In this document: piece by piece, positions 708 to 54,544 of the stretch | Layout: each line of letters opens with the position of its first letter | Numbering within the stretch: the stretch's first letter is position 1 | Virus record (IMG/VR): IMGVR_UViG_3300026549_000042 | Span: 53,745 to 117,744 of that record | Direction: 5' to 3' (one strand) | DNA length: 64,000 nt | Source of the DNA: a virus | Taxonomy: Duplodnaviria; Heunggongvirae; Uroviricota; Caudoviricetes | Made by a program: the position numbers and the translations under genes | Notes under the pieces: model-generated | Told to the model about the DNA's origin: nothing | Database searches by the model: none | The model's input: the letters and a program-made list of their open reading frames with translations, nothing else

Positions 708-1121
708 ATGAATAATATGATCAATAGAGATTTAAAAATAGAATTTAGAGCAGTACCATACTCATCTTCACATGTTTTGGAATATAGATTTTCTCCAGAT
801 CAAGATTTGCACTATTATAAAGAACATAAATGGTTATGGGGATTGATTAAATTTAGAACACCACATAAGTATAGTACATCTTGGAAACAACCTGTAAGAT
901 TCCGTAATGCTATAAGTTCATATCGTTATCCTGAAAATGACTTGTGGAATACTGATTTTCCAATATTTATTCATTCAGAAGATGAATTAAATAAGTTTAA
1001 ACAAAAATTTAAGACATACGGAGAATTCTTAGATTGGTATTGGGAAGAAGATGCAAAAGAACGACAAGAATATAGAGAAGCCAGAGCAGAATACTTAAAG
1101 AAAAAACAAATTTGGTATTAA
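708..1121 (+). CDS. hypothetical protein
   Basis: 137-aa ORF tightly packed after the preceding gene; no recognisable motif. Confidence 0.5.
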   Translation: MNNMINRDLKIEFRAVPYSSSHVLEYRFSPDQDLHYYKEHKWLWGLIKFRTPHKYSTSWKQPVRFRNAISSYRYPENDLWNTDFPIFIHSEDELNKFKQKFKTYGEFLDWYWEEDAKERQEYREARAEYLKKKQIWY

Positions 1122-1188
1122 TGAATTAAAAAAAATTAAATTATTTAAGTTTTTATACTATATTTGATTAACATAAAAAATAAAGAAT

Positions 1189-1413
1189 ATGAAAGGTATT
1201 ACAAAGAAAGTTATTGAACAGGATTACAAGACTATACATGATATGGTTTTGAAATACAAAGAAGCTATTTATGAAAATCAAGATGGACAGCCAGCACATT
1301 TCGACAATCAATCTAAACTATGTAGATTGCTAATAGGGGATATTAGATGCGGTTTGACTGTTGTAGAAAATGCATTTAATGTTCTTAATGATATTGACAT
1401 AATTGAAGACTAA
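1189..1413 (+). CDS. hypothetical protein
   Basis: 74-aa ORF in a same-strand operon-like array. Confidence 0.4.
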   Translation: MKGITKKVIEQDYKTIHDMVLKYKEAIYENQDGQPAHFDNQSKLCRLLIGDIRCGLTVVENAFNVLNDIDIIED

Positions 1414-1416
1414 ATA

Positions 1417-1815
1417 TTGTTAATACATAAACTTATAGAAAAAATGGATAATCATTATAATAATCATTATAATTTTGGAATAATTACAGACAATAATATT
1501 ATATTGTTTAATAATGGCATACATGAGTTTCGATGTTCAATGTCTGATGCATTAGAAGATGTATATGTAACTATTGAAAATGGTATTTTGGAAATAAAAG
1601 CAAAACGTGTTATTTATGATTTTTATAATGATGAGGGATATCGAATTTTTGAAGATCAATGGAAACATACACCACATCAAAATGAAATTCATGAAGGCAG
1701 AAAATTTCCTTGGACAAAGAAAAAAAGATTTGTATATGCTGGTTATGTAAGGACTTATGAAAAAGAACCAGTAGAATTAATAATGAGTAATTTTAAAATT
1801 GAAATATACGATTAA
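1417..1815 (+). CDS. hypothetical protein
   Basis: 132-aa ORF, 3-nt spacing from upstream gene. Confidence 0.5.
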   Translation: MLIHKLIEKMDNHYNNHYNFGIITDNNIILFNNGIHEFRCSMSDALEDVYVTIENGILEIKAKRVIYDFYNDEGYRIFEDQWKHTPHQNEIHEGRKFPWTKKKRFVYAGYVRTYEKEPVELIMSNFKIEIYD

Positions 1816-1830
1816 TTTATACGATTAATT

Positions 1831-2085
1831 ATGTGGCATTTTATTCTATCAGTATTATTTATATGTATTGGTTTCGTTATTATAACTCTAGAAACGGATA
1901 AATATTATAAACCTGAAAAGGCATTTATAAGTACAATGTGTATTTGCATAGGTACAATATGTATGGTAAACTTTATAGGACAAAAATATCCTAAACCTAT
2001 AGATGTATATAGAGGAAAAACAACTTTACAAATAACATACAAAGATAATATACCAATTGATACTGTAGTAGTTTTTAAAAAATGA
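1831..2085 (+). CDS. small membrane protein (two hydrophobic helices)
   Basis: Hydrophobic segments LSVLFICIGFVIITL and ICIGTICMVNFIG; the stop overlaps the next gene's start (ATGA). Confidence 0.45.
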   Translation: MWHFILSVLFICIGFVIITLETDKYYKPEKAFISTMCICIGTICMVNFIGQKYPKPIDVYRGKTTLQITYKDNIPIDTVVVFKK

Positions 2086-2687
2086 TAAAACATAATGTAA
2101 TATATCAAGCTATGAATACTGAACAAAAGGCAAAAGCCTATGACGAGGCTATTAAAAGAGCAAAGTACTATCAGAAAGAGAATGGTTCTGCTGTAATCTC
2201 CGCAATCTTCCCTGAACTCAAAGAAGAATCCGAGGATGATAGGATAAGAAAAAACATCAAAATTGCTCTTATAAGCGTGGAAGAAGAACTAGCAGACTTT
2301 TATTCTACACACCATACGTCGCAAGAAGAATTTCTTGCTTGGCTTGAAAAGCAAAGTGAACAAAAGCCTGATGATTGGGGCGAAGAGGATAAAAAAGAAT
2401 TGGAAGTCATTATAGACGAATTGACAAAATATGTTATGTTTAATCAATATGGAACATCACTGTCAGTCTATGATATTTCATGGCTTGAAAAACTTCCATC
2501 AAGATTTATTACTCAGCAACAGCAAAAACAAGAATGGAGTGAAGAGGATAAAATAGATACAGAAATATTGAATGCTGCTATTTTGTTTGTCGTGAATAAT
2601 ACTGATGAATTTGCTTGTAATGGTGTAAGTAAAGAAGATGTTATTAACTGGCTAAAATCACTTAAACAAAAAATAAAAGAAAAATAA
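2082..2687 (+). CDS. hypothetical protein, paralog family member 1
   Basis: Shares N-terminal motifs (EQKAKAYDEA, FPELKE, AWLEKQ.EQK) with the adjacent ORF 2691..3659. Confidence 0.55.
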   Translation: MIKHNVIYQAMNTEQKAKAYDEAIKRAKYYQKENGSAVISAIFPELKEESEDDRIRKNIKIALISVEEELADFYSTHHTSQEEFLAWLEKQSEQKPDDWGEEDKKELEVIIDELTKYVMFNQYGTSLSVYDISWLEKLPSRFITQQQQKQEWSEEDKIDTEILNAAILFVVNNTDEFACNGVSKEDVINWLKSLKQKIKEK

Positions 2688-2690
2688 ATT

Positions 2691-3659
2691 ATGAAAACTA
2701 TAGAACAAAAAGCTAAAGCCTATGATGAGGCTTTGGAAAAAGCACGTCAACTATGTGGTTATCCTACGACTAAGCCGTTTATAAGCGACTTGCAAGACCT
2801 CTTCCCCGAACTTAAAGAGAGTGAGGATGAGAAGATAAGGAAAAGTCTTATTCATTTGGTACATTTATATGGAGGTGAGTTTGGAATGATTGATGCTAAT
2901 ACATCTGTAGAAAAGGCTATCGCTTGGCTTGAAAAACAAAATGAACAAAAGTCTACCGACACTTGTGATTCTTCAACTATAAATGGTAAAGAATTTCCAG
3001 CAAGTGAGAAACGAGATTTTAGGTATTTTATTAAGCCAAAGTTTCATGAAGGTGATTGGGTTGTGGATAATAAGTCCGGAATTACACAACAAGTTCTTGA
3101 TTTTAGAGGTGGAATATATACTTGTACATATAATAGTTTTACCATAGATTGTGAAAGTAATTATCACCTTTGGACAATTAAAGATGCAAAGAATGGTGAT
3201 GTACTTCAGCTTGGCACTGTAACTGCAATATTTAAAAAGTATATTGGTCAAGAAAAATGTATATGTTATTGTTCTATTGATGAGGATGGAGTTTTTGAAA
3301 TTCCAATTGAAGATGGAGAAGATAACATCTATGGTTGTACAAATACTACCCCAGCAACAAAAGAACAGCGTGCCCTATTGTTTGCAAAAATGGAAGAAGC
3401 AGGATATGAATTTGACTTTGAGAAGAAAGAGGTAAAGAAAATTCATGTTATAGATGAAGGCAAAGCTGAAATGGACTATTGTTTCACTAAGATGATGAAC
3501 GGAGAAAAGGTAAGTCCTGCATGGAGTGAAAAGGACAAAGAAAGATTCAAACGTATTGCTTCCTTTATGTGGCAAAATAGGAAAGGAGATACTGATGAGA
3601 TTTTTCAGCAAGAACAAGATGTAAAATGGTTAAATTCGCTTATATGTGAAAATAGTTAA
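2691..3659 (+). CDS. hypothetical protein, paralog family member 2 with extra C-terminal domain
   Basis: N-terminal 100 aa paralogous to 2082..2687; unique C-terminal extension of about 220 aa. Confidence 0.55.
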   Translation: MKTIEQKAKAYDEALEKARQLCGYPTTKPFISDLQDLFPELKESEDEKIRKSLIHLVHLYGGEFGMIDANTSVEKAIAWLEKQNEQKSTDTCDSSTINGKEFPASEKRDFRYFIKPKFHEGDWVVDNKSGITQQVLDFRGGIYTCTYNSFTIDCESNYHLWTIKDAKNGDVLQLGTVTAIFKKYIGQEKCICYCSIDEDGVFEIPIEDGEDNIYGCTNTTPATKEQRALLFAKMEEAGYEFDFEKKEVKKIHVIDEGKAEMDYCFTKMMNGEKVSPAWSEKDKERFKRIASFMWQNRKGDTDEIFQQEQDVKWLNSLICENS

Positions 3660-3724
3660 AAATCATTTAAATATTTTTCAATCTATAATCTATTTTAATT
3701 TATAAAAATATAATAAGTAAATAA

Positions 3725-4378
3725 ATGAAAAAACTTTTATTTTTAGTTATGTTATCCGTATTTATGATTGGTATGAATTCATGTAACCGTTGTAATAAGG
3801 ATAAAGAAAATGATAATGCTCAAGAACAAGTTGATTCAACAGATACAGCAAAGTTAGATTTTGCTCGTCTTGTTGCAGCAGATCGTCAAGAAATGTTTGT
3901 TATCGCAGGTGATGATTACCGTTGGTATGAAACATGTATGAGACTTAACAATTATCTTGATGAAGAAAATGATGGTACTTTAGCAGAACTTGTTAATGTA
4001 TTTCAAGCAGTTGTTGCTCGCAGTGAAAGTAGTTTTGATACTAAAGTTTACAAGTTCCAACATTTTAGTGACGGTACTAATCTTAAAGATTCTATTGCTG
4101 GATTCTGGGTTGAAGATGAACCTATGAATGATGATGCAATTCAACTTACATATGAACAAGCGTATGAAAAGTTAATGGAAACAAATATTCCTAAGCCACA
4201 TTCACGTTATGTAACATTACGGAAACAAGTTGGACCTAAAGAAGCAAATCCTCAATACATTTTTGGTAATGTACGGGAGCAGGTTTATGTAGATGCAGTT
4301 ACTGGTGAAGTACTTAATTATAATCCTGCATTTGGACCTGATTTGAATCTTGGTACTCCTCTTGGTGAGTGGCCCTAA
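3725..4378 (+). CDS. lipoprotein, hypothetical
   Basis: Signal peptide MKKLLFLVMLSVFMIGMNSC with lipobox Cys; locally higher GC. Confidence 0.6.
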   Translation: MKKLLFLVMLSVFMIGMNSCNRCNKDKENDNAQEQVDSTDTAKLDFARLVAADRQEMFVIAGDDYRWYETCMRLNNYLDEENDGTLAELVNVFQAVVARSESSFDTKVYKFQHFSDGTNLKDSIAGFWVEDEPMNDDAIQLTYEQAYEKLMETNIPKPHSRYVTLRKQVGPKEANPQYIFGNVREQVYVDAVTGEVLNYNPAFGPDLNLGTPLGEWP

Positions 4379-4394
4379 ATAGTAGATGTGAGAA

Positions 4395-4656
4395 TAGGCC
4401 TCTGAGTATGTATAAGGGTAATTCTTTAAGAAATAGCTCGAGTAAAGTTAAAGAAGTAGATTGGAACTGAAAGAGTTTCCTCAGCCTTATGAAAAGAGTT
4501 GGTTGGATTAAATTCCAAAATGTGAAGAGCAGCAGATTCCGTAAGGAGCCATACGGTGGAACACAACAAAAGTCGTAAAACAGCGCAAGTGCCTAATAGC
4601 GGGTTGCCAAATTTGGTTGCAAAAGTCTGTACCTCGCAAATCTTCTCACCATAACA
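4395..4656 (+). ncRNA. candidate structured non-coding RNA (unclassified)
   Basis: GC-rich segment in an AT-rich genome, no convincing ORF, several local stems (ccgtaaggagccatacgg; palindrome ccaaatttgg), followed directly by a strong terminator. Confidence 0.2.
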
Positions 4657-4690
4657 TGCAGTTACTTTAAGTAACTGCATTTTTTTGTTT
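4657..4690 (+). terminator. rho-independent terminator
   Basis: gcagttac-ttta-gtaactgc hairpin followed by tttttttg. Confidence 0.6.
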
Positions 4691-4758
4691 AAATTACTTA
4701 AATATCTAAGTGAAAATTTCTATATTATATTTGTAAAACTTAAAAAAATAAAAATATT

Positions 4759-34781: not shown

Positions 34782-35696
34782 ATGAATGAAACAAAAACAA
34801 TGAATAGAACATTAACTTTAAGTGATGCTGACAAAAATGAACTTAAAGACAAACTTACATTTGATTTTATATCAACTAATACAATTATTTGTAATGACAT
34901 AAATAAAATAAAAAATTCTATTCCCAAAAAATATTTTAATCTTATATTACTTGACCCACCATACAATATCACAAAAAAATATGGTTCAGATATATTCCGT
35001 GAACTTCCAGATGATGAATACTATGAATATATAAAATATATTATTGATCATTGTTTGAGTGTACTGGATGATAACGGAACACTTTATATATGTGGTGATT
35101 GGAAGACGTCTTATATTCAAAGAAAGGTATTAGAATGGTTTGAAAATCAAGGAATGTGTGATGTAATAAATAGAATTACATGGTCACGTGATAAAGGTAG
35201 AGGGGCATTAAACAATTGGAAGAATAATTGTGAAGACATTTATATGGTTGTAAAGGATAAAAATCATTATTATTTTAATGTAGATGCTGTAAAGATTAGA
35301 AAGACCGTATTAGCTCCTTATAAAGACAAAAATGGGAACAATAAAGATTGGACCACAGATGAAAATGGTAATTATAGAATGACATATCCATCAAATGTTT
35401 GGTATGATATAGTTGTACCGTTTTGGTCTATGGCAGAAAATACAAATCATCCTACACAGAAATCAGAAAAACTTTATGCAAAATTAATTTTAGCATCATC
35501 TAAAGAAGGAGATACTATATATGAACCATTTGCTGGCGTATGTACCGGGTGTGTTACTGCAAAGAAATTAAATAGAAACTATGTTGGTGTAGAAATGTGT
35601 GAAGAATATTGTTTGTTGGGTCTAAAACGTCTTAAATTAGCAGAAGTAAATAAAAACATACAAGGATATGAAGACGGATTATTTAGAGATAAATAA
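34782..35696 (+). CDS. DNA methyltransferase, beta-class (N6-adenine or N4-cytosine), orphan
   Basis: Motif IV LILLDPPYNI precedes motif I YEPFAGVCTGCVTA; no adjacent restriction endonuclease candidate. Confidence 0.8.
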   Translation: MNETKTMNRTLTLSDADKNELKDKLTFDFISTNTIICNDINKIKNSIPKKYFNLILLDPPYNITKKYGSDIFRELPDDEYYEYIKYIIDHCLSVLDDNGTLYICGDWKTSYIQRKVLEWFENQGMCDVINRITWSRDKGRGALNNWKNNCEDIYMVVKDKNHYYFNVDAVKIRKTVLAPYKDKNGNNKDWTTDENGNYRMTYPSNVWYDIVVPFWSMAENTNHPTQKSEKLYAKLILASSKEGDTIYEPFAGVCTGCVTAKKLNRNYVGVEMCEEYCLLGLKRLKLAEVNKNIQGYEDGLFRDK

Positions 35697-35734: not shown

Positions 35735-36010
35735 ATGGAATCTTTATTAGTAAATAAAAAAGATCTATTGAACAAAATTAATTCGGTATTAGATACTCTT
35801 AATTCAATTAAAACAGATATAATGAAAGATATTGAATTAGATGATATTACAATGATTGAAGATGTTAAAGAAAGTAAATATAAGGAAACATTAAAGACTT
35901 TAACACCTCAAAAACAATCAAAAACCAAGAGGTATGGAGATGAGTATGAAAGTACTAATGGATGGAATGAAGTAGGTGATAATAGTGTATTACCTAATAT
36001 TACCATGTAA
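35735..36010 (+). CDS. hypothetical protein
   Basis: 91-aa ORF; 3' end overlaps the convergent terminase gene by 11 nt. Confidence 0.4.
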   Translation: MESLLVNKKDLLNKINSVLDTLNSIKTDIMKDIELDDITMIEDVKESKYKETLKTLTPQKQSKTKRYGDEYESTNGWNEVGDNSVLPNITM

Positions 36011-38657
36011 AATTATCATATTCACTAAATTCTGTAATATTTGCTATATTTGTTGGCATTTGATACATATTATTTTGTTCAAACATATTAAATTGGTTTA
36101 GTTCATCATTTGAATTAAACCAATTATTGTTTATTGACTGTTGTATATTGCTTATTGCTATTTCTTCAATAAAATCTTTATATCTTGGTGTTTGTAATAC
36201 TAATGGTATTTGAACAAAAGTCATAATAATGTCATCATGTCCATAAGATGCTTTATAAGACCCATTTCCATTCTTATCTTCAAATCCTTCAAGTTCATTA
36301 ATAGCTAACATATCGGTTGTTGTAACATTGCCCTTTTCAAAATTAATCTTAAGTAATGAGCATGCTACTGACTTATTACCGGAAGTCATACGAACTCCAG
36401 GTATATATTTTGAATTGACATTTAGTCCCATATTAGCAATTTGTTCATCTAAAGGACCTTTCTTATATAATACGAAATTATACATATCAATACCCTCAGG
36501 CACAATGTTAAATCTCCAATTGTAGTCTATATTATAGTCATTTTCATTATAGTTAGACAATAATGTATAGAATAATGCCCCATAAGTATTCCATTCCAAT
36601 GACCATAATGTTCTATCATCATTAAATAATTGACCAACTAATAGCCAAAATTCAAGTGAAGCAAACTCTAGTTCAATCTCATTACTTGACCAACGACCTA
36701 CGTGAATGAACTTATCTTTTTCTGGAATATAAAATATGTTAAATACTGTACTGTCTTGACCGGAACCTTCAGCAAGATCAACTGTTATTAAGAATCTGCC
36801 AGTACGTAACAACTTAAAATCAAACTGAGGATCCCAAAACAAACATTCCGAATGAGAAAGATATATATGTGGAAATTCCTTCATAAAATCTTCTGTTCTG
36901 TTATCCCATAATACTGATGTATCTCTTAATTTACTTAAACATTCTCTTGATACTAAGCATTTATCACTTGCAGAGAATTGCGTGCCATATTGATATTGGA
37001 ATGCTTCTTCTGAACCAAGAATACCTACCATTTTCTTGTGCCATGCTTCTGTTCTTTTTTCCCATTTTTTAGTTACTTTATTCCATTCTGGTACTTGATC
37101 CCAGTCAACTTTAAATGGTCCATATATGTTTTTCTTTTCAATAGCAGCTTTCCAAAGTTTATAGAAAAGATTAAATCCATTTTGTGTTGACATAATACAT
37201 ACATTAGCAGAACTATCAGCAGTAATAGTAGGAATAATATTGTTATAGAATAGTTCTACATCATTAGGAGGACACCAAGCAAACTCATCAAGAATAAGGA
37301 AGTTAATTGTTTTACCAAGACCTGCTGTAGGTGAGAATGCTTCTGTAGAAATTGATGAATTGTTGTCAAAAGAAATTTCTGATTGATTCCATTTATATAC
37401 ACCAACTTTTAAAAAATATGGAAGACACATATACATATCTTTTATCTTTGCTAATAAGTCTCTACCTGCAGGTCCAGATTTAGAAAGTATTAGGGCCATT
37501 TTATCGGTATTAAATAATATTATCCAAAGACAATAGATTGCTGTTGTAGTTGAATTATGACTTAATATTCCATTTGAATAGAATCTATGGTTTTCATCAT
37601 TAACTGTTGTATCACACATTGATATTTTAGTTGATGAAATTTTTAATGAAACAATTTTTTGTAATCCTTTATCAGTTTGAATATAATCACCAATTGATAA
37701 ATTTTTTACATATATTTCATTAAATTTTTCATCAAATACTATATGTTCATCCGCACAATTTAATTCATAACCATTTTCTAATTTTATTATATATTGTTCA
37801 AATGGCTTAGTTATCATTATATGAGATAAAGGTTTATATCCAGTATCTGTCAATATTTCAATATTATCATGTAATTCAATTTCTTTAATAGTTTTATAAT
37901 TATCTATAAGTTTTTCTTTTCTTATATAATGATAATCTATATGATCTATTATAGAAATTAATTTATATAAAAATTCTATAAATTGTTGGGAATCTTCATG
38001 TTTCTTTTTTTCTTTATTCCTTTTATTCCTGCCATAAGTTAATCTATAAATTATTTTATATAATTGATATTTACATTTCCATATTAATGTTTGCTTACAA
38101 TATAAATTATAAAGTTCAAAAATTGGTAAATTATAAATATTATCCTTTATACAATAATGATTTATTTTATTAACATGTAAATAATAATCTATATATGTTT
38201 TATTAATTCTTACATAAATATTTGACAACATGTTAAGAGATTTGCCACTTTGTCTACAACTCAACATTATACTGAATGGGTGTGTCTGAAGATGTTTTAA
38301 ATAATTAATTTGATAATCTCGTAATTCAACAGGAGAAAATCCACCAGCAGGATTTTTAAGATAGCATTTAGATGCAAAATATACAGGATCTTGCATACAT
38401 TTTATATAGTCGTCTATTTCCTCTTCCGTTCTTTTATATACAAGATCTGCCTTTAAAAGTTTTGTATTTTTACCAATAAAAGGATTAGCCTTAAGTGGTA
38501 ATCCTTGTTTTAGTGCTTCTACGGCTTTATTTAATGAATATGTTGACCAAACTACACGTTCAGCTTCTTTACCACCTATTTGTTTTTTAACAGGATCAAA
38601 TTCTCTGTCTTTACTTATATCATATTCAAAGTCTTTATCTTGTGTATTATCCTGCAT
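36000..38657 (-). CDS. terL: terminase large subunit containing an intein in the Walker A P-loop
   Basis: DYQ...CRQSGK[intein]STTTAIY reconstitutes RQSGKST; Walker B FLILDEFAW; C-terminal nuclease motif GHDDIIMTF. Confidence 0.85.
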   Translation of the reverse strand: MQDNTQDKDFEYDISKDREFDPVKKQIGGKEAERVVWSTYSLNKAVEALKQGLPLKANPFIGKNTKLLKADLVYKRTEEEIDDYIKCMQDPVYFASKCYLKNPAGGFSPVELRDYQINYLKHLQTHPFSIMLSCRQSGKSLNMLSNIYVRINKTYIDYYLHVNKINHYCIKDNIYNLPIFELYNLYCKQTLIWKCKYQLYKIIYRLTYGRNKRNKEKKKHEDSQQFIEFLYKLISIIDHIDYHYIRKEKLIDNYKTIKEIELHDNIEILTDTGYKPLSHIMITKPFEQYIIKLENGYELNCADEHIVFDEKFNEIYVKNLSIGDYIQTDKGLQKIVSLKISSTKISMCDTTVNDENHRFYSNGILSHNSTTTAIYCLWIILFNTDKMALILSKSGPAGRDLLAKIKDMYMCLPYFLKVGVYKWNQSEISFDNNSSISTEAFSPTAGLGKTINFLILDEFAWCPPNDVELFYNNIIPTITADSSANVCIMSTQNGFNLFYKLWKAAIEKKNIYGPFKVDWDQVPEWNKVTKKWEKRTEAWHKKMVGILGSEEAFQYQYGTQFSASDKCLVSRECLSKLRDTSVLWDNRTEDFMKEFPHIYLSHSECLFWDPQFDFKLLRTGRFLITVDLAEGSGQDSTVFNIFYIPEKDKFIHVGRWSSNEIELEFASLEFWLLVGQLFNDDRTLWSLEWNTYGALFYTLLSNYNENDYNIDYNWRFNIVPEGIDMYNFVLYKKGPLDEQIANMGLNVNSKYIPGVRMTSGNKSVACSLLKINFEKGNVTTTDMLAINELEGFEDKNGNGSYKASYGHDDIIMTFVQIPLVLQTPRYKDFIEEIAISNIQQSINNNWFNSNDELNQFNMFEQNNMYQMPTNIANITEFSEYDNFTW
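37554..38240 (-). mobile_element. intein (about 229 aa) inserted between GK and ST of the terminase P-loop
   Basis: Begins with Ser after ..RQSGK; ends ..MCDTTVNDENHRFYSNGILSHN with +1 Ser (block F/G-like); the central N/K/Y-rich region may be a degenerate endonuclease domain. Confidence 0.6.
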
Positions 38658-39552
38658 ATAATCCTGTTTTTGATGCTATATTTGAAAGTAATTTTAATTT
38701 TAATGAAACAAGTTTTATAGCTGCTTTTGTTTTTTTTGTTTCGGACTTTTCTAAAAGTCTTTTCTGCGCCTGTTCTAATTGATTATTGTATACACCTAAC
38801 ATTCTTTGTCCAATTGTTGTTCCTAAAGATTCTATTTTATCTTCATATGCTTGCTTATCGTGCTCATTCCATTGCTTATCAACTGTTTTTTGCACTTGTT
38901 GTTTAGTATGTATTAAAGCTTTGTTTATTTGATCAGATATGATATCTGGTCCTTGTTCCATATAAGATGTAATATCAGTAAGTACATTAGTAATATTGTT
39001 TACATATGAAGTAACTGTAGAATTTACTTTATTCATAGTTTTCTTCATATCATCTAAGAATTTTTTCTGATTATTCTTTTCATTTTTTTCATTTTCCTTT
39101 TTTAATCTACTTTCTGCTGACTCTTTAAGTGTTTTTAATATATCTCCTATAGATTTTTTATTGTCATTAAAATAAGAAAATGCATAAGATGAAACTGCAG
39201 ATGGGAATCTTGAAATCTCAGTTGTATGTTTATTTATATAGTTTCCTAAAATTTTTGTAGTTTCTTTAGTAAGTATCATTGTAGCATCAGAAATTATTTT
39301 CTGTGCTATTGTATTAATTAATTCAGGATTTATTTGAGAAATAGTTCCAGCAGCTCCTAATCCTATAGCTGCTAAGTCCGTAGTTGCTCGTATACTTGAT
39401 AAGTTAGTTATATTTTTTGTTGTATTTGAAACTGCACTAGTTACTTTACCAGCAATAAATGAATTACCAGCATCTATAGCATAATCTTTAAATGATTGTT
39501 GTTCTGCATCCGTTAATGAAGTATTTGAAAGTGTAAATAGTTTCTCACTCAT
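38647..39552 (-). CDS. hypothetical protein
   Basis: 301-aa ORF, Ser/Thr/Asn-rich N-terminal half, K/E-rich C-terminal half. Confidence 0.5.
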   Translation of the reverse strand: MSEKLFTLSNTSLTDAEQQSFKDYAIDAGNSFIAGKVTSAVSNTTKNITNLSSIRATTDLAAIGLGAAGTISQINPELINTIAQKIISDATMILTKETTKILGNYINKHTTEISRFPSAVSSYAFSYFNDNKKSIGDILKTLKESAESRLKKENEKNEKNNQKKFLDDMKKTMNKVNSTVTSYVNNITNVLTDITSYMEQGPDIISDQINKALIHTKQQVQKTVDKQWNEHDKQAYEDKIESLGTTIGQRMLGVYNNQLEQAQKRLLEKSETKKTKAAIKLVSLKLKLLSNIASKTGLYAG

Positions 39553-40290: not shown

Positions 40291-42054
40291 TTATGCTTCA
40301 GTGGTTTCGGCAGATTCAGGTTGTACATCACCCATCATTTCATCATCAATTTCTCCGCCGCCTTCTTCTTCACCACCGCCTAATTCATCTGTACCTTCTG
40401 CTCCTTCTTCTTCACCGCCACCTAATTCATCTTCACCTTCTGCGGATGCTCCGCCTTTATTCTTTTCTTCTAACTTAAGTTTTTCATTAAGTTCAAGATC
40501 AGCTTCAGACATCTTAAGATATTTTTGAATCAAGAACTTCATAGCAAAGAAAGGTATATCATTACCTTCTGAATCAGTCTCAACTAACGAATCTTTCATT
40601 GTACTTATAAATTCAATACGTTTTGTCATAATTTCAATATTCATCATTTCTTCAAATTGATTATATGAATTCCAACGTAAAGAAACTGAATCTAATATTC
40701 GCTTGTCATTCTTAATATCAGGAATAGATAATGTAAGTTGAATACGTAATGGCTTAAGCAATATATAACCGAAAGTATTGCGAAGACGATTTACAAATCT
40801 AGCAAAATCAATTTCTTCTCTTAATGCTTGTGTAGGATCTGAACCAAACCATGTTGCTTGAGATTCTTTGTCAAATCTATTAAGAGGAATTTTTGACATT
40901 TTATATAATTTCTCTGCAAAATACTTAATTTGATCTGAATCATTAAGTGTAGGACCAGAATCAACAAGCGTTTCTATTTCTGGCTTACCGCTCTCATTTT
41001 GTGGAAGCCAATATTCTTTGTTGAATGGTAAATTTACTCTACCGTTTACTTTTATTTCACCAGTATCTTGATTGAATGATATATCTTCTTTGTATCTGTT
41101 CATTGCAGATGCTAATGTTTGCATTCCTTTTGCTCTATTCATACCGCCAACAGGAATTGTAAACATTGTCTTAAATGAAGATTGCGTAACTGTCCAAATA
41201 ATTTGTGCTTGCTCAATAATTCTATATATATTAAATGGGCGAATAAGACGTTCTAGATATGATTGTCTATTTGTTACACCAGAATCTTCATATTTAATAT
41301 ATATGATCTGTGAATCTAACAGTTTACGTTCTCTACCAACAACACCCTTAAATTGAACCCAATATATAATACCATTTTCAACTGACTTAGTTAATGTATT
41401 TGGGTCTAGATCAACAATATTTATAATTGATTTTGGATATTCTATGTTATCATATACTATTTCATATGCAAGTACACCTTCAATAAGCCATCTCTTATAA
41501 ATATCCCAAGCCCTGTTTTTCCAGTTCAACAATAAATATATCTTATAAAAATTAGCATTAATGCATTTGTCAATTTCTTCTGCATTCTTTTCATTAAGAT
41601 CTTGAATAAGTCCATTGTCTAAGAACGGTGTACATATATAAGCTTCTTCATCATCATATACAATTGACTCATTAGACATCATATCTAATATATCCTCAAG
41701 TTCAGGTTGTACTGCAAGTTTTCTTAATATTTCTCGTTTTTGGTCAAATGATTTTTCTTGGAATGTCTTTTCTTCATCAGGTTTTACTTTCCAATTGTTT
41801 AACCAAGACCCATATAGATTTTGCTGAAGAACTGCATCATCTTTAGGTTGCAAAAACTTGTCTGCTGGAATAGCCATCATGTTCTTAAATATCTTATCAT
41901 CATAGTCCATTCCATAATGTGACAATGATGTAAGAATCTTAGAAAATCTTGTTGGCTTTTTAATATTAGCTATAGACTCGTAGTAGTTTTGCTTTACAGC
42001 CTCCATTATAGTTTGTTCATTTTCTAATACATTATTTAAATTACCAAAATTCAT
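40291..42054 (-). CDS. hypothetical protein with Gly/Glu-rich acidic C-terminal tail (possible portal protein, unverified)
   Basis: 587 aa; C-terminal GGASAEGEDELGGGEEEGAEGTDELGGGEEEGGGEIDDE; same-strand cluster with terL. Confidence 0.5.
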   Translation of the reverse strand: MNFGNLNNVLENEQTIMEAVKQNYYESIANIKKPTRFSKILTSLSHYGMDYDDKIFKNMMAIPADKFLQPKDDAVLQQNLYGSWLNNWKVKPDEEKTFQEKSFDQKREILRKLAVQPELEDILDMMSNESIVYDDEEAYICTPFLDNGLIQDLNEKNAEEIDKCINANFYKIYLLLNWKNRAWDIYKRWLIEGVLAYEIVYDNIEYPKSIINIVDLDPNTLTKSVENGIIYWVQFKGVVGRERKLLDSQIIYIKYEDSGVTNRQSYLERLIRPFNIYRIIEQAQIIWTVTQSSFKTMFTIPVGGMNRAKGMQTLASAMNRYKEDISFNQDTGEIKVNGRVNLPFNKEYWLPQNESGKPEIETLVDSGPTLNDSDQIKYFAEKLYKMSKIPLNRFDKESQATWFGSDPTQALREEIDFARFVNRLRNTFGYILLKPLRIQLTLSIPDIKNDKRILDSVSLRWNSYNQFEEMMNIEIMTKRIEFISTMKDSLVETDSEGNDIPFFAMKFLIQKYLKMSEADLELNEKLKLEEKNKGGASAEGEDELGGGEEEGAEGTDELGGGEEEGGGEIDDEMMGDVQPESAETTEA

Positions 42055-52894: not shown

Positions 52895-54544
52895 TTATTT
52901 TAATGCATTAAGATTTATTTTTGGCATTGTATGTAAGTTATCAATATTAGATATAGGACCTCGTTTAATTAAATATAAATATTGATTTATTTGATTTGAT
53001 TCATATGAATATGTAAATTTCATGCTATCAATATAGTATATGTCAGATAATGCAATATTTGGCATTGATGAAGATGATGAATAAATAAATTCTGCCTGAT
53101 TCATATCTTCAATTCCTTCTAACATATTGTCTGATTCTAATGTTCCACCTTCTTCTGCAACATTATTTGATCTATCAATAAGTAATCTCTCTATTGTAGG
53201 ATTGTCTTCAAATATTGCAACATTTACAAGTGTCCCACGTTGCAATCCAAAATTTGGTTCCTCCAACAATACTTCTAATATTCTTTGTCTATGCTTCGAA
53301 AAGAATTTGTTTCTTATTATCTTTTGCTTATTTATTGGTAAATCATTACATTCAATAACAGTTTCTAATCCTTGTTGTTTAGCATATTCTTCAGTATGTT
53401 TTCCGTCAATTGAATTTTGTATGACTTCAATATCGTATCTTGACAATGAATTATTTCCATTATTTACATCTAATAAGTTAAGATTATACATTGTCAATGA
53501 TGTACCGCTTATAAGATCACTATTGTTTACTTGAACATTATAACTGCGTATTTTTAAGTTATTTGCTGCTTGAGTATTATTATAATTTGTAAGTGTTCTA
53601 TTCACATATCTTGTCTGATTTTCTGGTACATTAGTTGTACTTGTTGCATTAATGCCGACAAATGAATGAATTGCTAAGTTTTTTGGATTGACATTTTCTT
53701 CATTAAACAGCCATCCAACATTAACTAATACAATATATCCATATAAATCAACCCAACAGTCAAATATGTTTTGTTCATCTATACCTCCCCATTTTATATG
53801 TTGTTGTATGAAATTTGTATATGTTTGACGTTGTATTAGTCTTGGCAATCTGTCATTAATGTTTTTACAATGATCTGTAGAAGAAAAACCTAACTTACAT
53901 TTTTTTGCTATTTCATGAAGACATTCCCAAGTATTTGGCTGTTTGTTTTCTCCGGATGTACAGTCTTTTCCAGAACAACCGGCATATGTTATTTCCTCTA
54001 AATACATTTTTTTGAATGCATTTAACTTGTACGTACCAGAGTATAATATTCTGTTTCCAATTATATTACATCCAGTAATTTCAAATTCAAGCTTTATAGA
54101 CTTATATGTATTATTTACTTGTGGGACTAATATTACTTTTATTGAATTATTAAGTTCTGGTATATTCGTTGCTTTTATAATGCCTTCTGAATCATCCACA
54201 GTTATTGATATTGATGGTAGAAAATCATTATAAAAAATCGACATTGAAATAATTTGATTATAGTTTATTCGTCTATCATTAATATTGACTAATGGATATA
54301 ATATTCCTGAAACTTTTGTAGAGTCTATTTCTCCTGCCGCATCTGTAGGTATTGGGGCTACATCTTGTGTAATTGTTTCAGCAGAATTATTTGTTTCTTT
54401 TACTTCATTATTTCCATCAGACACACTATATATATCAGCCAAAGATATGAATTCTATCTCTGGATCATGAAATATTATAGGATCAGTAAAGTTTATTGGC
54501 TCTAATATTTCTTCATTTAAAATATTTTGACTATTATCTGGCAT
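52895..54544 (-). CDS. hypothetical protein
   Basis: 549-aa ORF; stop overlaps the next gene's start. Confidence 0.55.
   Translation of the reverse strand: MPDNSQNILNEEILEPINFTDPIIFHDPEIEFISLADIYSVSDGNNEVKETNNSAETITQDVAPIPTDAAGEIDSTKVSGILYPLVNINDRRINYNQIISMSIFYNDFLPSISITVDDSEGIIKATNIPELNNSIKVILVPQVNNTYKSIKLEFEITGCNIIGNRILYSGTYKLNAFKKMYLEEITYAGCSGKDCTSGENKQPNTWECLHEIAKKCKLGFSSTDHCKNINDRLPRLIQRQTYTNFIQQHIKWGGIDEQNIFDCWVDLYGYIVLVNVGWLFNEENVNPKNLAIHSFVGINATSTTNVPENQTRYVNRTLTNYNNTQAANNLKIRSYNVQVNNSDLISGTSLTMYNLNLLDVNNGNNSLSRYDIEVIQNSIDGKHTEEYAKQQGLETVIECNDLPINKQKIIRNKFFSKHRQRILEVLLEEPNFGLQRGTLVNVAIFEDNPTIERLLIDRSNNVAEEGGTLESDNMLEGIEDMNQAEFIYSSSSSMPNIALSDIYYIDSMKFTYSYESNQINQYLYLIKRGPISNIDNLHTMPKINLNALK

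Follow-up and report, generated by a model that had tools for sequence, protein, structure and literature searches.

A contiguous mini-intein at the Walker A site of a phage large terminase and its likely origin from a split intein

P-loops are a known hotspot of intein insertion, and the large terminase subunit TerL is a well-known intein host (PMC4760082). Terminase genes fractured by a homing endonuclease gene (HEG) have been described (PMC2677866), as have atypically split TerL inteins (PMC11766414, PMC13014065), in which the N-terminal intein fragment (IntN) comprises 25-37 amino acids (aa) and the C-terminal fragment (IntC) about 104 aa (PMC11766414, PMC13014065). AceL-TerL and GOS-TerL are split at site S2, after helix alpha1 (PMC13014065), and GOS-TerL uses Ser1 (PMC11766414). 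The split of VidaL, at S1, follows strand beta2 and leaves an IntN of 16 aa, and PolB16 is said to be the one cysteine-less intein among the natural atypically split ones (PMC13014065). Here, an insert in the TerL gene of a virus of the Caudoviricetes was analyzed (IMG/VR record IMGVR_UViG_3300026549_000042, positions 53,745 to 117,744; this stretch of 64,000 nucleotides (nt) is called the window). An earlier note, made from the sequence alone, had placed an intein exactly in the Walker A P-loop of TerL at 37554-38240 and had named terminase P-loops as a known intein hotspot. The placement was borne out. As a whole, the locus is best explained, with good confidence, as a functional class-1 mini-intein in the TerL P-loop that is most likely a re-fused split intein.

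The insert at the Walker A site and its hairpin

The TerL precursor is encoded by an open reading frame (ORF) of 885 aa, intein included, at 36000..38657 on the minus strand, the strand of all intein and TerL features given below. Residues S140-N368 (229 aa; 37554..38240) make up a class-1 Hint mini-intein with Ser1 and Ser at position +1. As delimited by alignment with relatives, the N-extein (residues 1-139; 38241..38657) ends with the first half of the Walker A motif, RQSGK (residues 135-139; 38241..38255), and the C-extein (residues 369-885; 36003..37553) begins with Ser+1 (S369; 37551..37553), which opens STTTAIY and completes Walker A as GK/ST. Removal of the 229 aa restores RQSGKSTTT, as the earlier note had stated. 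The distance from Lys139 to Asp457 of the Walker B motif LILDEF (inside 37278..37304) is then 89 residues rather than the approximately 87 estimated there, and equals the spacing between K166 and D255 of T4 gp17.

Both the 97%-identical P0002 (656 aa) and the 74%-identical P0014 (645 aa) read SCRQSGK/STTTAIY and lack exactly the 229 residues in alignments, a comparison with intein-less relatives that had been suggested as a check. The GC content of the intein is 18.6%, versus 30.3% for the extein. In a phmmer search of the Protein Data Bank (PDB), TerL residues of about 255-368 aligned to the consensus intein Cat (6dsl; E = 4.6e-9), and the insert also matched gp41-1 (E = 7.6e-7) and VidaL (E = 3e-5), all three alignments extending to the terminal His-Asn. 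An AlphaFold2 model of TerL residues 135-373, built with a 62-sequence alignment, showed a mean predicted local distance difference test score (pLDDT) of 90 and a predicted template modelling score (pTM) of 0.87. The top match of this model in a Foldseek search of the PDB was VidaL (6vgv; E = 1.7e-9, root-mean-square deviation (rmsd) of 1.6 A over 106 columns, 28% identity), and about 50 further matches were all inteins or Hint domains, including BIL and Hedgehog. The insert ends with ...NHRFYSNGILSHN before S369, and the residues D303 and H305 of block B, D349 and H357 of block F, H367, N368 and S369 are invariant in the 62 sequences; position 1 is Ser in the window and Ser, Cys or Thr across the family. 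The canonical C-terminal block with its HN/S junction had been recognized correctly, and the NCBIfam profile of the intein C-terminal splicing region (TIGR01443) scored marginally above its curated cut-off (18.7 versus 15.6 bits). On the basis of its absence from orthologues, its PDB homology, the structural model with its matches and its GC content, the insert is a genuine Hint intein at the TerL Walker A site, of which we are practically certain.

No LAGLIDADG or HNH endonuclease domain was found in the insert in Pfam, PHROG and NCBIfam scans, and the PHROG scan returned no match to the intein at all. The Hint core is uninterrupted in the AlphaFold2 model, so that the in-frame endonuclease domain between blocks B and F that defines a maxi-intein is absent; the classification as mini-intein was therefore right.

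Block A with the first strand, SLNMLSNIYVRIN (38202..38240; strand 146-151 in the model), contains the Ser1 nucleophile and resembles CLDLKTQVQTPQG of gp41-1. It is followed (38088..38201) by a variable alpha/beta excursion (aa 153-178), which is missing from P0076 and P0078, and by helix alpha1, IFELYNLYCKQT (aa 179-190; modelled as helix at 179-186, IFELYNLY). The next segment (37923..38087) is a family-specific antiparallel two-helix hairpin, with helix 1 at aa 191-212, a loop, and helix 2 at aa 217-245 (H57-78 and H83-111 in the model). The helices have a pLDDT of 96-98, and the loop between them is short and of low confidence. The all-beta Hint core (aa 256-368; 37554..37892), recognized by phmmer, AlphaFold2, Foldseek and conservation, comprises block B, ELNCADEHIVF with Ala302 and His305 (37734..37766), and blocks F/G, ISMCDTTVNDENHRFYSNGILSHN with Asp349, His357, His367 and Asn368 (37554..37625).

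The hairpin lies at the S2 position, where relatives are split, and is conserved in all three groups of matches listed: 45 contiguous forms, 55 C-fragments and 120 N-fragments. In 39 contiguous relatives, the frequency of the majority residue was 0.5-0.6 in the two helices and 0.66 in the Hint core. Since the helices are modelled confidently and are about as conserved as the Hint core, the N-terminal half of the intein represents a conserved family-specific hairpin, not degenerate filler. Accordingly, the earlier note's description of the middle part as low-complexity did not hold, and its suggestion of a degenerate intein found no support either, with block A present and the Asp/His pairs of blocks B and F and the HN+S junction invariant. 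What that note could not see was that the middle part is the site at which an HEG splits close relatives.

Split relatives and a probable fusion scar in the hairpin loop

A search of 5.8 billion protein clusters yielded 2528 TerL homologues (E<1e-10). Among the 120 best matches, 20 were intein-less, 45 carried a contiguous intein of 189-258 aa, and 55 were C-terminal fragments with an IntC of 146-148 aa, all starting in the hairpin loop (M..IINILYKLIS...). A second search with TerL residues 1-221 gave 332 matches, and the best 120 of these were all stand-alone N-fragments of 196-234 aa that end just past helix 1 (...LTYGRKKRNENKKES, then a stop), with an IntN of 68-95 aa (median 80). The split point in these relatives follows helix alpha1, at S2.

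Thr is the first intein residue (RQSGK/T...) in the contiguous P0031, P0039, P0053, P0094, P0101-P0120 and others, and position 1 of the N-fragments P0121-P0240 (120 listed of 332) was Ser in 53, Cys in 46 and Thr in 21. The codons for these three residues are one nucleotide apart, and the residues interchange freely at this position. To our knowledge, inteins with Thr1 as the nucleophile are rare or have not been characterised.

Locus L001, with 96-97% nt identity to the window, consists of an N-fragment (220 aa), a middle ORF (390 aa) and a C-fragment (665 aa). The more distant L002 is arranged likewise (219, 396 and 654 aa), and in L003-L005, also more distant, an N-fragment of 208 aa and a C-fragment of 646 aa enclose a middle ORF decayed to a 62-aa remnant. 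The middle ORF carries 'EYYxKxxPELSxEE' repeats at its N-terminus and, towards the C-terminus, an 'EFxGDYWH...IWEYDY' nuclease region, and it matches PHROG 22677 (2e-13 and 7e-17). Pfam gave weak REase_MTES_1575 and DUF559 matches for the L002 and L003 copies only and nothing for the L001 copy, and phmmer found no match to it in the PDB. These features fit a free-standing Vsr/DUF559-like HEG, in agreement with the Vsr-like enzymes described by Dassa et al. 2009. The two TerL fragments that it separates would have to trans-splice.

In the fractured loci, the HEG ORF begins about 41 nt before the N-fragment ORF ends and runs in a different frame (L001 1067..1107, L002 2821..2864), and the HEG stop overlaps the ATG of the C-fragment (ATGATTAA; L001 2232..2239, L002 4001..4011), which suggests coupled translation of the three ORFs. 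At L003 3610..4004, as in L004 and L005, TerL is split and the HEG shows an internal deletion, a frameshift and a change of GDYWH to GYYWH. The stop of the 62-aa remnant ORF overlaps the start of the C-fragment (ATGA), and the remnant may have been kept because it couples the C-fragment translationally.

Aligned by blastn, the window corresponds to L001 1..1118 and 2239..4727, the intervening 1120 bp (1119..2238) being absent. This segment comprises the HEG from about codon 18 onward and the ATG of the C-fragment. In addition, the window lacks one T (L001 AAAAAAATGAAAC versus window AAAAAAAGAAAC); in L001, the extra T sets the frame that runs the N-fragment into a TGA a few bases on and creates the in-frame ATG of the HEG. 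Since both the 1120 bp and the T are absent, the window reads ...LTYGRNKRNKEKK-KHEDSQ-QFIEFLYKLIS..., i.e., the IntN tail, HEG codons 12-17 in frame and IntC, as a single frame. Removal of the 1120 bp from L001 in silico left the gene split, with a C-fragment starting MKHEDSQ, whereas removal of the 1120 bp and the T gave a contiguous ORF of 887 aa that matches the window except for two junction codons.

The resulting fusion scar lies in the hairpin loop (37983..38033), as located by blastn, junction alignment with L001 and in-silico reconstruction. It consists of the IntN tail GRNKRNKEK (38007..38033), the 1-nt indel in codon K218 (38004..38006), the in-frame HEG 5' codons KHEDSQ (37986..38003) and the deletion junction at about Q225 (37983..37985; placement ambiguous by about 20 nt). 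In an alternative frame, a dead remnant of the HEG start survives at 37976..38035, with its ATG at 38035 and 19 codons (MAGIKGIKKKRNMKIPNNL, then a stop). The same overlapping ATG starts the 390-396-aa HEG ORFs of L001 and L002 and the decayed HEG frame of L003, and the HED(S)xRFxEYY start occurs also in L003 and P0148. A tblastn search of the window with the HEGs found a 10-codon start remnant only and no second copy that could act in trans. The scar residues 213-222 of the loop are present in 16% of the other contiguous forms and absent from 84%, and loop junctions differ among those forms. The nearest relative of the window intein is that of the split P0001 (98.5% identity), the following nine neighbours are all split, and the nearest contiguous intein is 83.6% identical.

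These observations make it likely that the window allele derived by HEG loss and was not simply never invaded. A split intein would have been re-fused into a cis-splicing intein after an HEG deletion of about 1.12 kb and the loss of one T.

A stretch of the inter-helix loop in P0007, which has a contiguous 258-aa intein, reads KEYYQKYFPSLTEEECEKIKKEK in frame and matches the N-terminal repeat module of the HEG (BLASTP E = 4e-7, in a two-sequence database of the HEGs). Judged by this match, a second contiguous intein would carry an HEG scar of independent origin.

In a neighbour-joining tree of the C-extein (121 taxa), the window, the split P0001 and the intein-less P0002 group tightly in a single clade (distances 0.013 and 0.044). 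Over the 121 taxa, a minimum of 11 changes of intein state was required, and the Fitch root state was cis. Intein-plus and intein-minus alleles differ by a purely synonymous cluster in the 30 nt directly 5' of the insertion site, where the intein-plus flank at the P-loop reads AGTGGCAAA. In two independent pairs of alleles, this 30-nt bin stands out, with 10 of the 106 differences between the window and the empty allele L006 (Poisson P = 8e-6) and 12 of the 85 between L002 and L008 (Poisson P = 2e-8). The cluster, a putative homing or co-conversion tract of about 30 nt of N-extein coding sequence (38241..38270), looks like what is expected from homing co-conversion or from target-site immunity or resistance.

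Alternative explanations

The strongest alternative to HEG loss is that the window represents the ancestral, empty homing site, and that L001 arose from it by insertion of the HEG into the hairpin loop, followed by the 1-nt insertion that split the frames. HEGs do spread by invading HEG-less alleles, and the hairpin occurs in contiguous short-loop forms free of any HEG trace (P0031, P0053, P0076 and P0078). However, the inserted segment would need to begin at HEG codon 18, and the target would already have to contain the HEG start and its first 17 codons in another frame. Moreover, the diverged fractured loci L001, L002 and L003 all share the overlapping ATG and the IntN tail, which are missing from most contiguous forms, and the run of nine split neighbours after P0001 likewise speaks against an allele that was never invaded. 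We consider this alternative unlikely, though it has to be taken seriously.

Several points nevertheless weigh against derivation of the window allele by HEG loss. The deletion junction can be placed only to within an AT-rich stretch of about 20 nt, where alignments to the HEG 'QRFPEY' codons or the IntC 'KQYIIN' codons are about equally good, and the reconstructed ORF is 2 codons longer than the real one. Invasion of a window-like allele by the HEG would yield the same pair of alleles, so the direction of the change is a matter of interpretation, and the assignment of the HEG draws on weak Pfam matches and an uncharacterised PHROG family. Finally, the deep branches of the extein tree hold only contiguous clades, in line with its cis root, which favours the empty-site alternative. 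A contiguous hairpin-bearing intein is therefore probably ancestral. The extein tree may, however, not track intein history, because the elements move horizontally.

A second alternative is that the intein is degenerate or inactive, the TerL copy then being either a pseudogene or functional without removal of the insert. Here, the profile search proposed in the earlier note is relevant, since it succeeded at the C-terminal region only: the Pfam Intein_splicing match was sub-threshold (E = 0.013), and no N-terminal intein profile in the Pfam and NCBIfam scans matched the insert. Furthermore, the usual Thr of block B is replaced by Ala302 in all 62 family members (A302-D-E-H305), the GC content is extremely low, and splicing activity is read from conservation alone. 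Known inteins do not strictly depend on a Thr at this place in block B. Against inactivity, the insert breaks GK/S of Walker A, so that the unspliced protein cannot bind ATP, and the catalytic residues are invariant in the 62 sequences, position 1 (Ser/Cys/Thr) aside. The frame is strongly maintained: the 101 very AT-rich codons of aa 153-253 (15.8% GC) are free of stops, while the other two frames contain 13 and 15, and 0 of 20,000 shuffles stayed open. Differences from L001 in the extein codons are mostly synonymous (58 synonymous, 7 non-synonymous), and the AlphaFold2 model is confident. Judged on this ORF, the one TerL gene considered in the window, an inactive intein is thus very improbable, and the conserved residues suggest that the intein is probably competent to splice in cis.

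Equally slight, or slightly less, is the probability of an assembly or sequencing artefact, i.e., a gene split without HEG whose ORFs are falsely fused by a T missing beside an A7 run. A single nucleotide does decide between the contiguous and the split form, and restoring the T results in a 220-aa N-fragment and a C-fragment starting MKHEDSQ. Yet the difference is the loss of a T and not a change in the length of the A run, and there are 45 other contiguous cluster representatives among the best 120 matches. Since the identical 885-aa protein was found on 3 independent contigs of 50-200 kb in the public collection, the contiguous ORF is considered real.

A conserved structural insertion of a TerL clade or an intron, suggested by the presence of the insertion in 100 of the 120 best matches, is effectively refuted by intein-less alleles at 97% identity, the Hint fold with junctions of Ser/Cys/Thr at the start and HN followed by Ser at the end, the open frame, and the lack of any Rfam family (group I and II introns included) at gathering threshold in the 64-kb window.

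Predicted splicing, genomic setting and comparison with known systems

Following the established class-1 intein pathway, splicing is predicted to start with folding of the 885-aa precursor and an N-O acyl shift of Ser140 onto the Lys139 carbonyl. Ser369 would then attack the resulting ester, Asn368 would cyclise with the help of His367 and His357, and an O-N shift would release the 656-aa TerL with an intact RQSGKSTTT P-loop. As the insert interrupts Walker A, the TerL ATPase should be inactive until splicing has occurred. Cis-splicing would still be possible with the hairpin in place, because the fold brings its ends next to each other. Each fragment of a split relative carries one of the two helices, which may, speculatively, help the fragments to associate.

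A wider reading joins these aspects and is offered tentatively. According to it, HEG deletion healed a trans-splicing split intein to the cis form, seemingly repeatedly and with different scars (window, P0003, P0006 and P0007), and the hairpin may be an antiparallel helical 'zipper' that gives the long IntN (about 80 aa) and IntC (about 147 aa) mutual affinity. If this is true, the zipper hairpin would be nature's own version of the coiled-coil-assisted split inteins made by engineering, present in a largely cysteine-independent family (Ser/Thr1, Ser+1).

The host protein shows the features of a T4-type (gp17) large terminase, i.e., Walker A, Walker B, Terminase_6 matches and a portal gene nearby. 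In the Pfam scan, Terminase_6N matched residues 369-519 at its cut-off (22.0 bits, cut-off 22; E = 1.4e-4), and the Terminase_6C match was weak. With tblastn, TerL matched annotated phage TerL genes, the closest being those of uncultured huge phages and of Vibrio and Tenacibaculum phages (26-32% identity); megablast of the gene (36000..38657) against 50,697 deposited phage genomes gave no match. Relatives were found on metagenomic contigs of 50-400 kb. The source is probably an uncultured large T4-like phage.

The TerL ORF overlaps an upstream 301-aa ORF (38647..39552, minus strand) by 11 nt (38647..38657) and a convergent 91-aa ORF (35735..36010, plus strand) by 11 nt (36000..36010), and both neighbours are syntenic in L001, L006 and L007. 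Just downstream of TerL, at about 34782..35696 (plus strand; coordinates inferred from L007), lies a gene for a 304-aa DNA methyltransferase of the N6_N4_Mtase family (PF01555), which is kept beside TerL in L001, L006 and L007. Two genes upstream of TerL, the Portal_T4 gene (40291..42054) encodes a 587-aa protein with a C-terminal acidic, Gly/Glu-rich imperfect repeat, GGASAEGEDELGGGEEEGAEGTDELGGGEEEGGGEIDDE (40291..40420, minus strand). The GC content of this repeat region is 34-37%, versus a window average of 26% (26.3% over 64 kb). No tRNA genes were found in the 64-kb window.

The bare finding is ordinary, since P-loop inteins and HEG-fractured terminases are already known. Of more interest is the allelic series, which within about 95-97% nt identity of the TerL coding flanks comprises an empty allele (L006), a contiguous one (the window) and a split one with intact HEG (L001), and which is extended by split alleles with a decayed HEG in relatives further removed. 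The series is a nearly complete snapshot of a homing cycle and bears on the origin of split inteins and their possible reversion, which are usually only modelled. In addition, the family is a large natural pool of atypically split inteins of the S2 site, with at least 55 C-fragment and at least 120 N-fragment cluster representatives, many of which start with Ser or Thr in place of Cys and all of which have Ser+1; cysteine-less split-intein reagents are scarce according to the protein-engineering literature (PMC13014065). Generic intein profiles almost miss the TerL insert, and many split halves sit unannotated as 'hypothetical' ORFs.

The window intein is one of a lineage of TerL P-loop inteins to which the atypically split AceL-TerL, GOS-TerL, Cat and VidaL also belong. 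It shares with AceL-TerL, GOS-TerL and Cat the TerL host and a homologous Hint core (CatC 6dsl: 27% identity at the E value given above), and its relatives are broken at S2 like AceL-TerL and GOS-TerL, a likeness that refers to host protein and split position. In contrast to these inteins, the window intein is contiguous, its family has Ser and not Cys at +1, and a two-helix hairpin, which AceL-TerL and GOS-TerL lack, occupies the split site. The long IntN and IntC of the split relatives are due to this hairpin. VidaL is the best structural match; it is a natural atypically split intein without helical hairpin and is cysteine-dependent. With gp41-1 (6qaz, 6riz), the Hint core aligns from residue 18 to the terminal HN, and block A is similar, but gp41-1 differs in its helicase host, its canonical S0 split and the lack of a hairpin. 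PolB16 resembles the split relatives, e.g., L001, in being atypically split with Ser1/Ser+1. It differs in host and split site (S1, with a 15-aa IntN), the family here has internal non-catalytic cysteines, and the window copy is in cis.

As far as the accessible description of the 'fractured genes' of Dassa et al. 2009 goes, which includes a gp17-like Terminase locus, L001 and L002 have the same architecture: an N-fragment, a free-standing Vsr/DUF559-like ORF, a C-fragment and overlapping ORF boundaries. The HEGs in that description are Vsr-like or GIY-YIG, free-standing, and accompany a split intein. Set against those fractured genes, the family of the window has an IntC of 146-148 aa, and the window itself is HEG-less and unfractured, a fused state that the model in the accessible part of that paper does not feature. 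Atypically split inteins consist of two ORFs with an IntN of 15-37 aa that holds just block A, with alpha1 in some cases; the ORF of the window is contiguous, and the IntN of its relatives is 68-95 aa long. Fractured genes have a free-standing HEG between their halves, as is the case in L001 and L002 and, in decayed form, in L003-L005, and there is none in the window. Since it is contiguous and HEG-less, the window element is neither a 'split intein' nor a 'fractured gene'. What is new compared with the characterised members is the hairpin at the S2 site, the long IntN and IntC in relatives, Ser/Thr1 combined with Ser+1, and an apparent reversion from split to cis that left an HEG scar.

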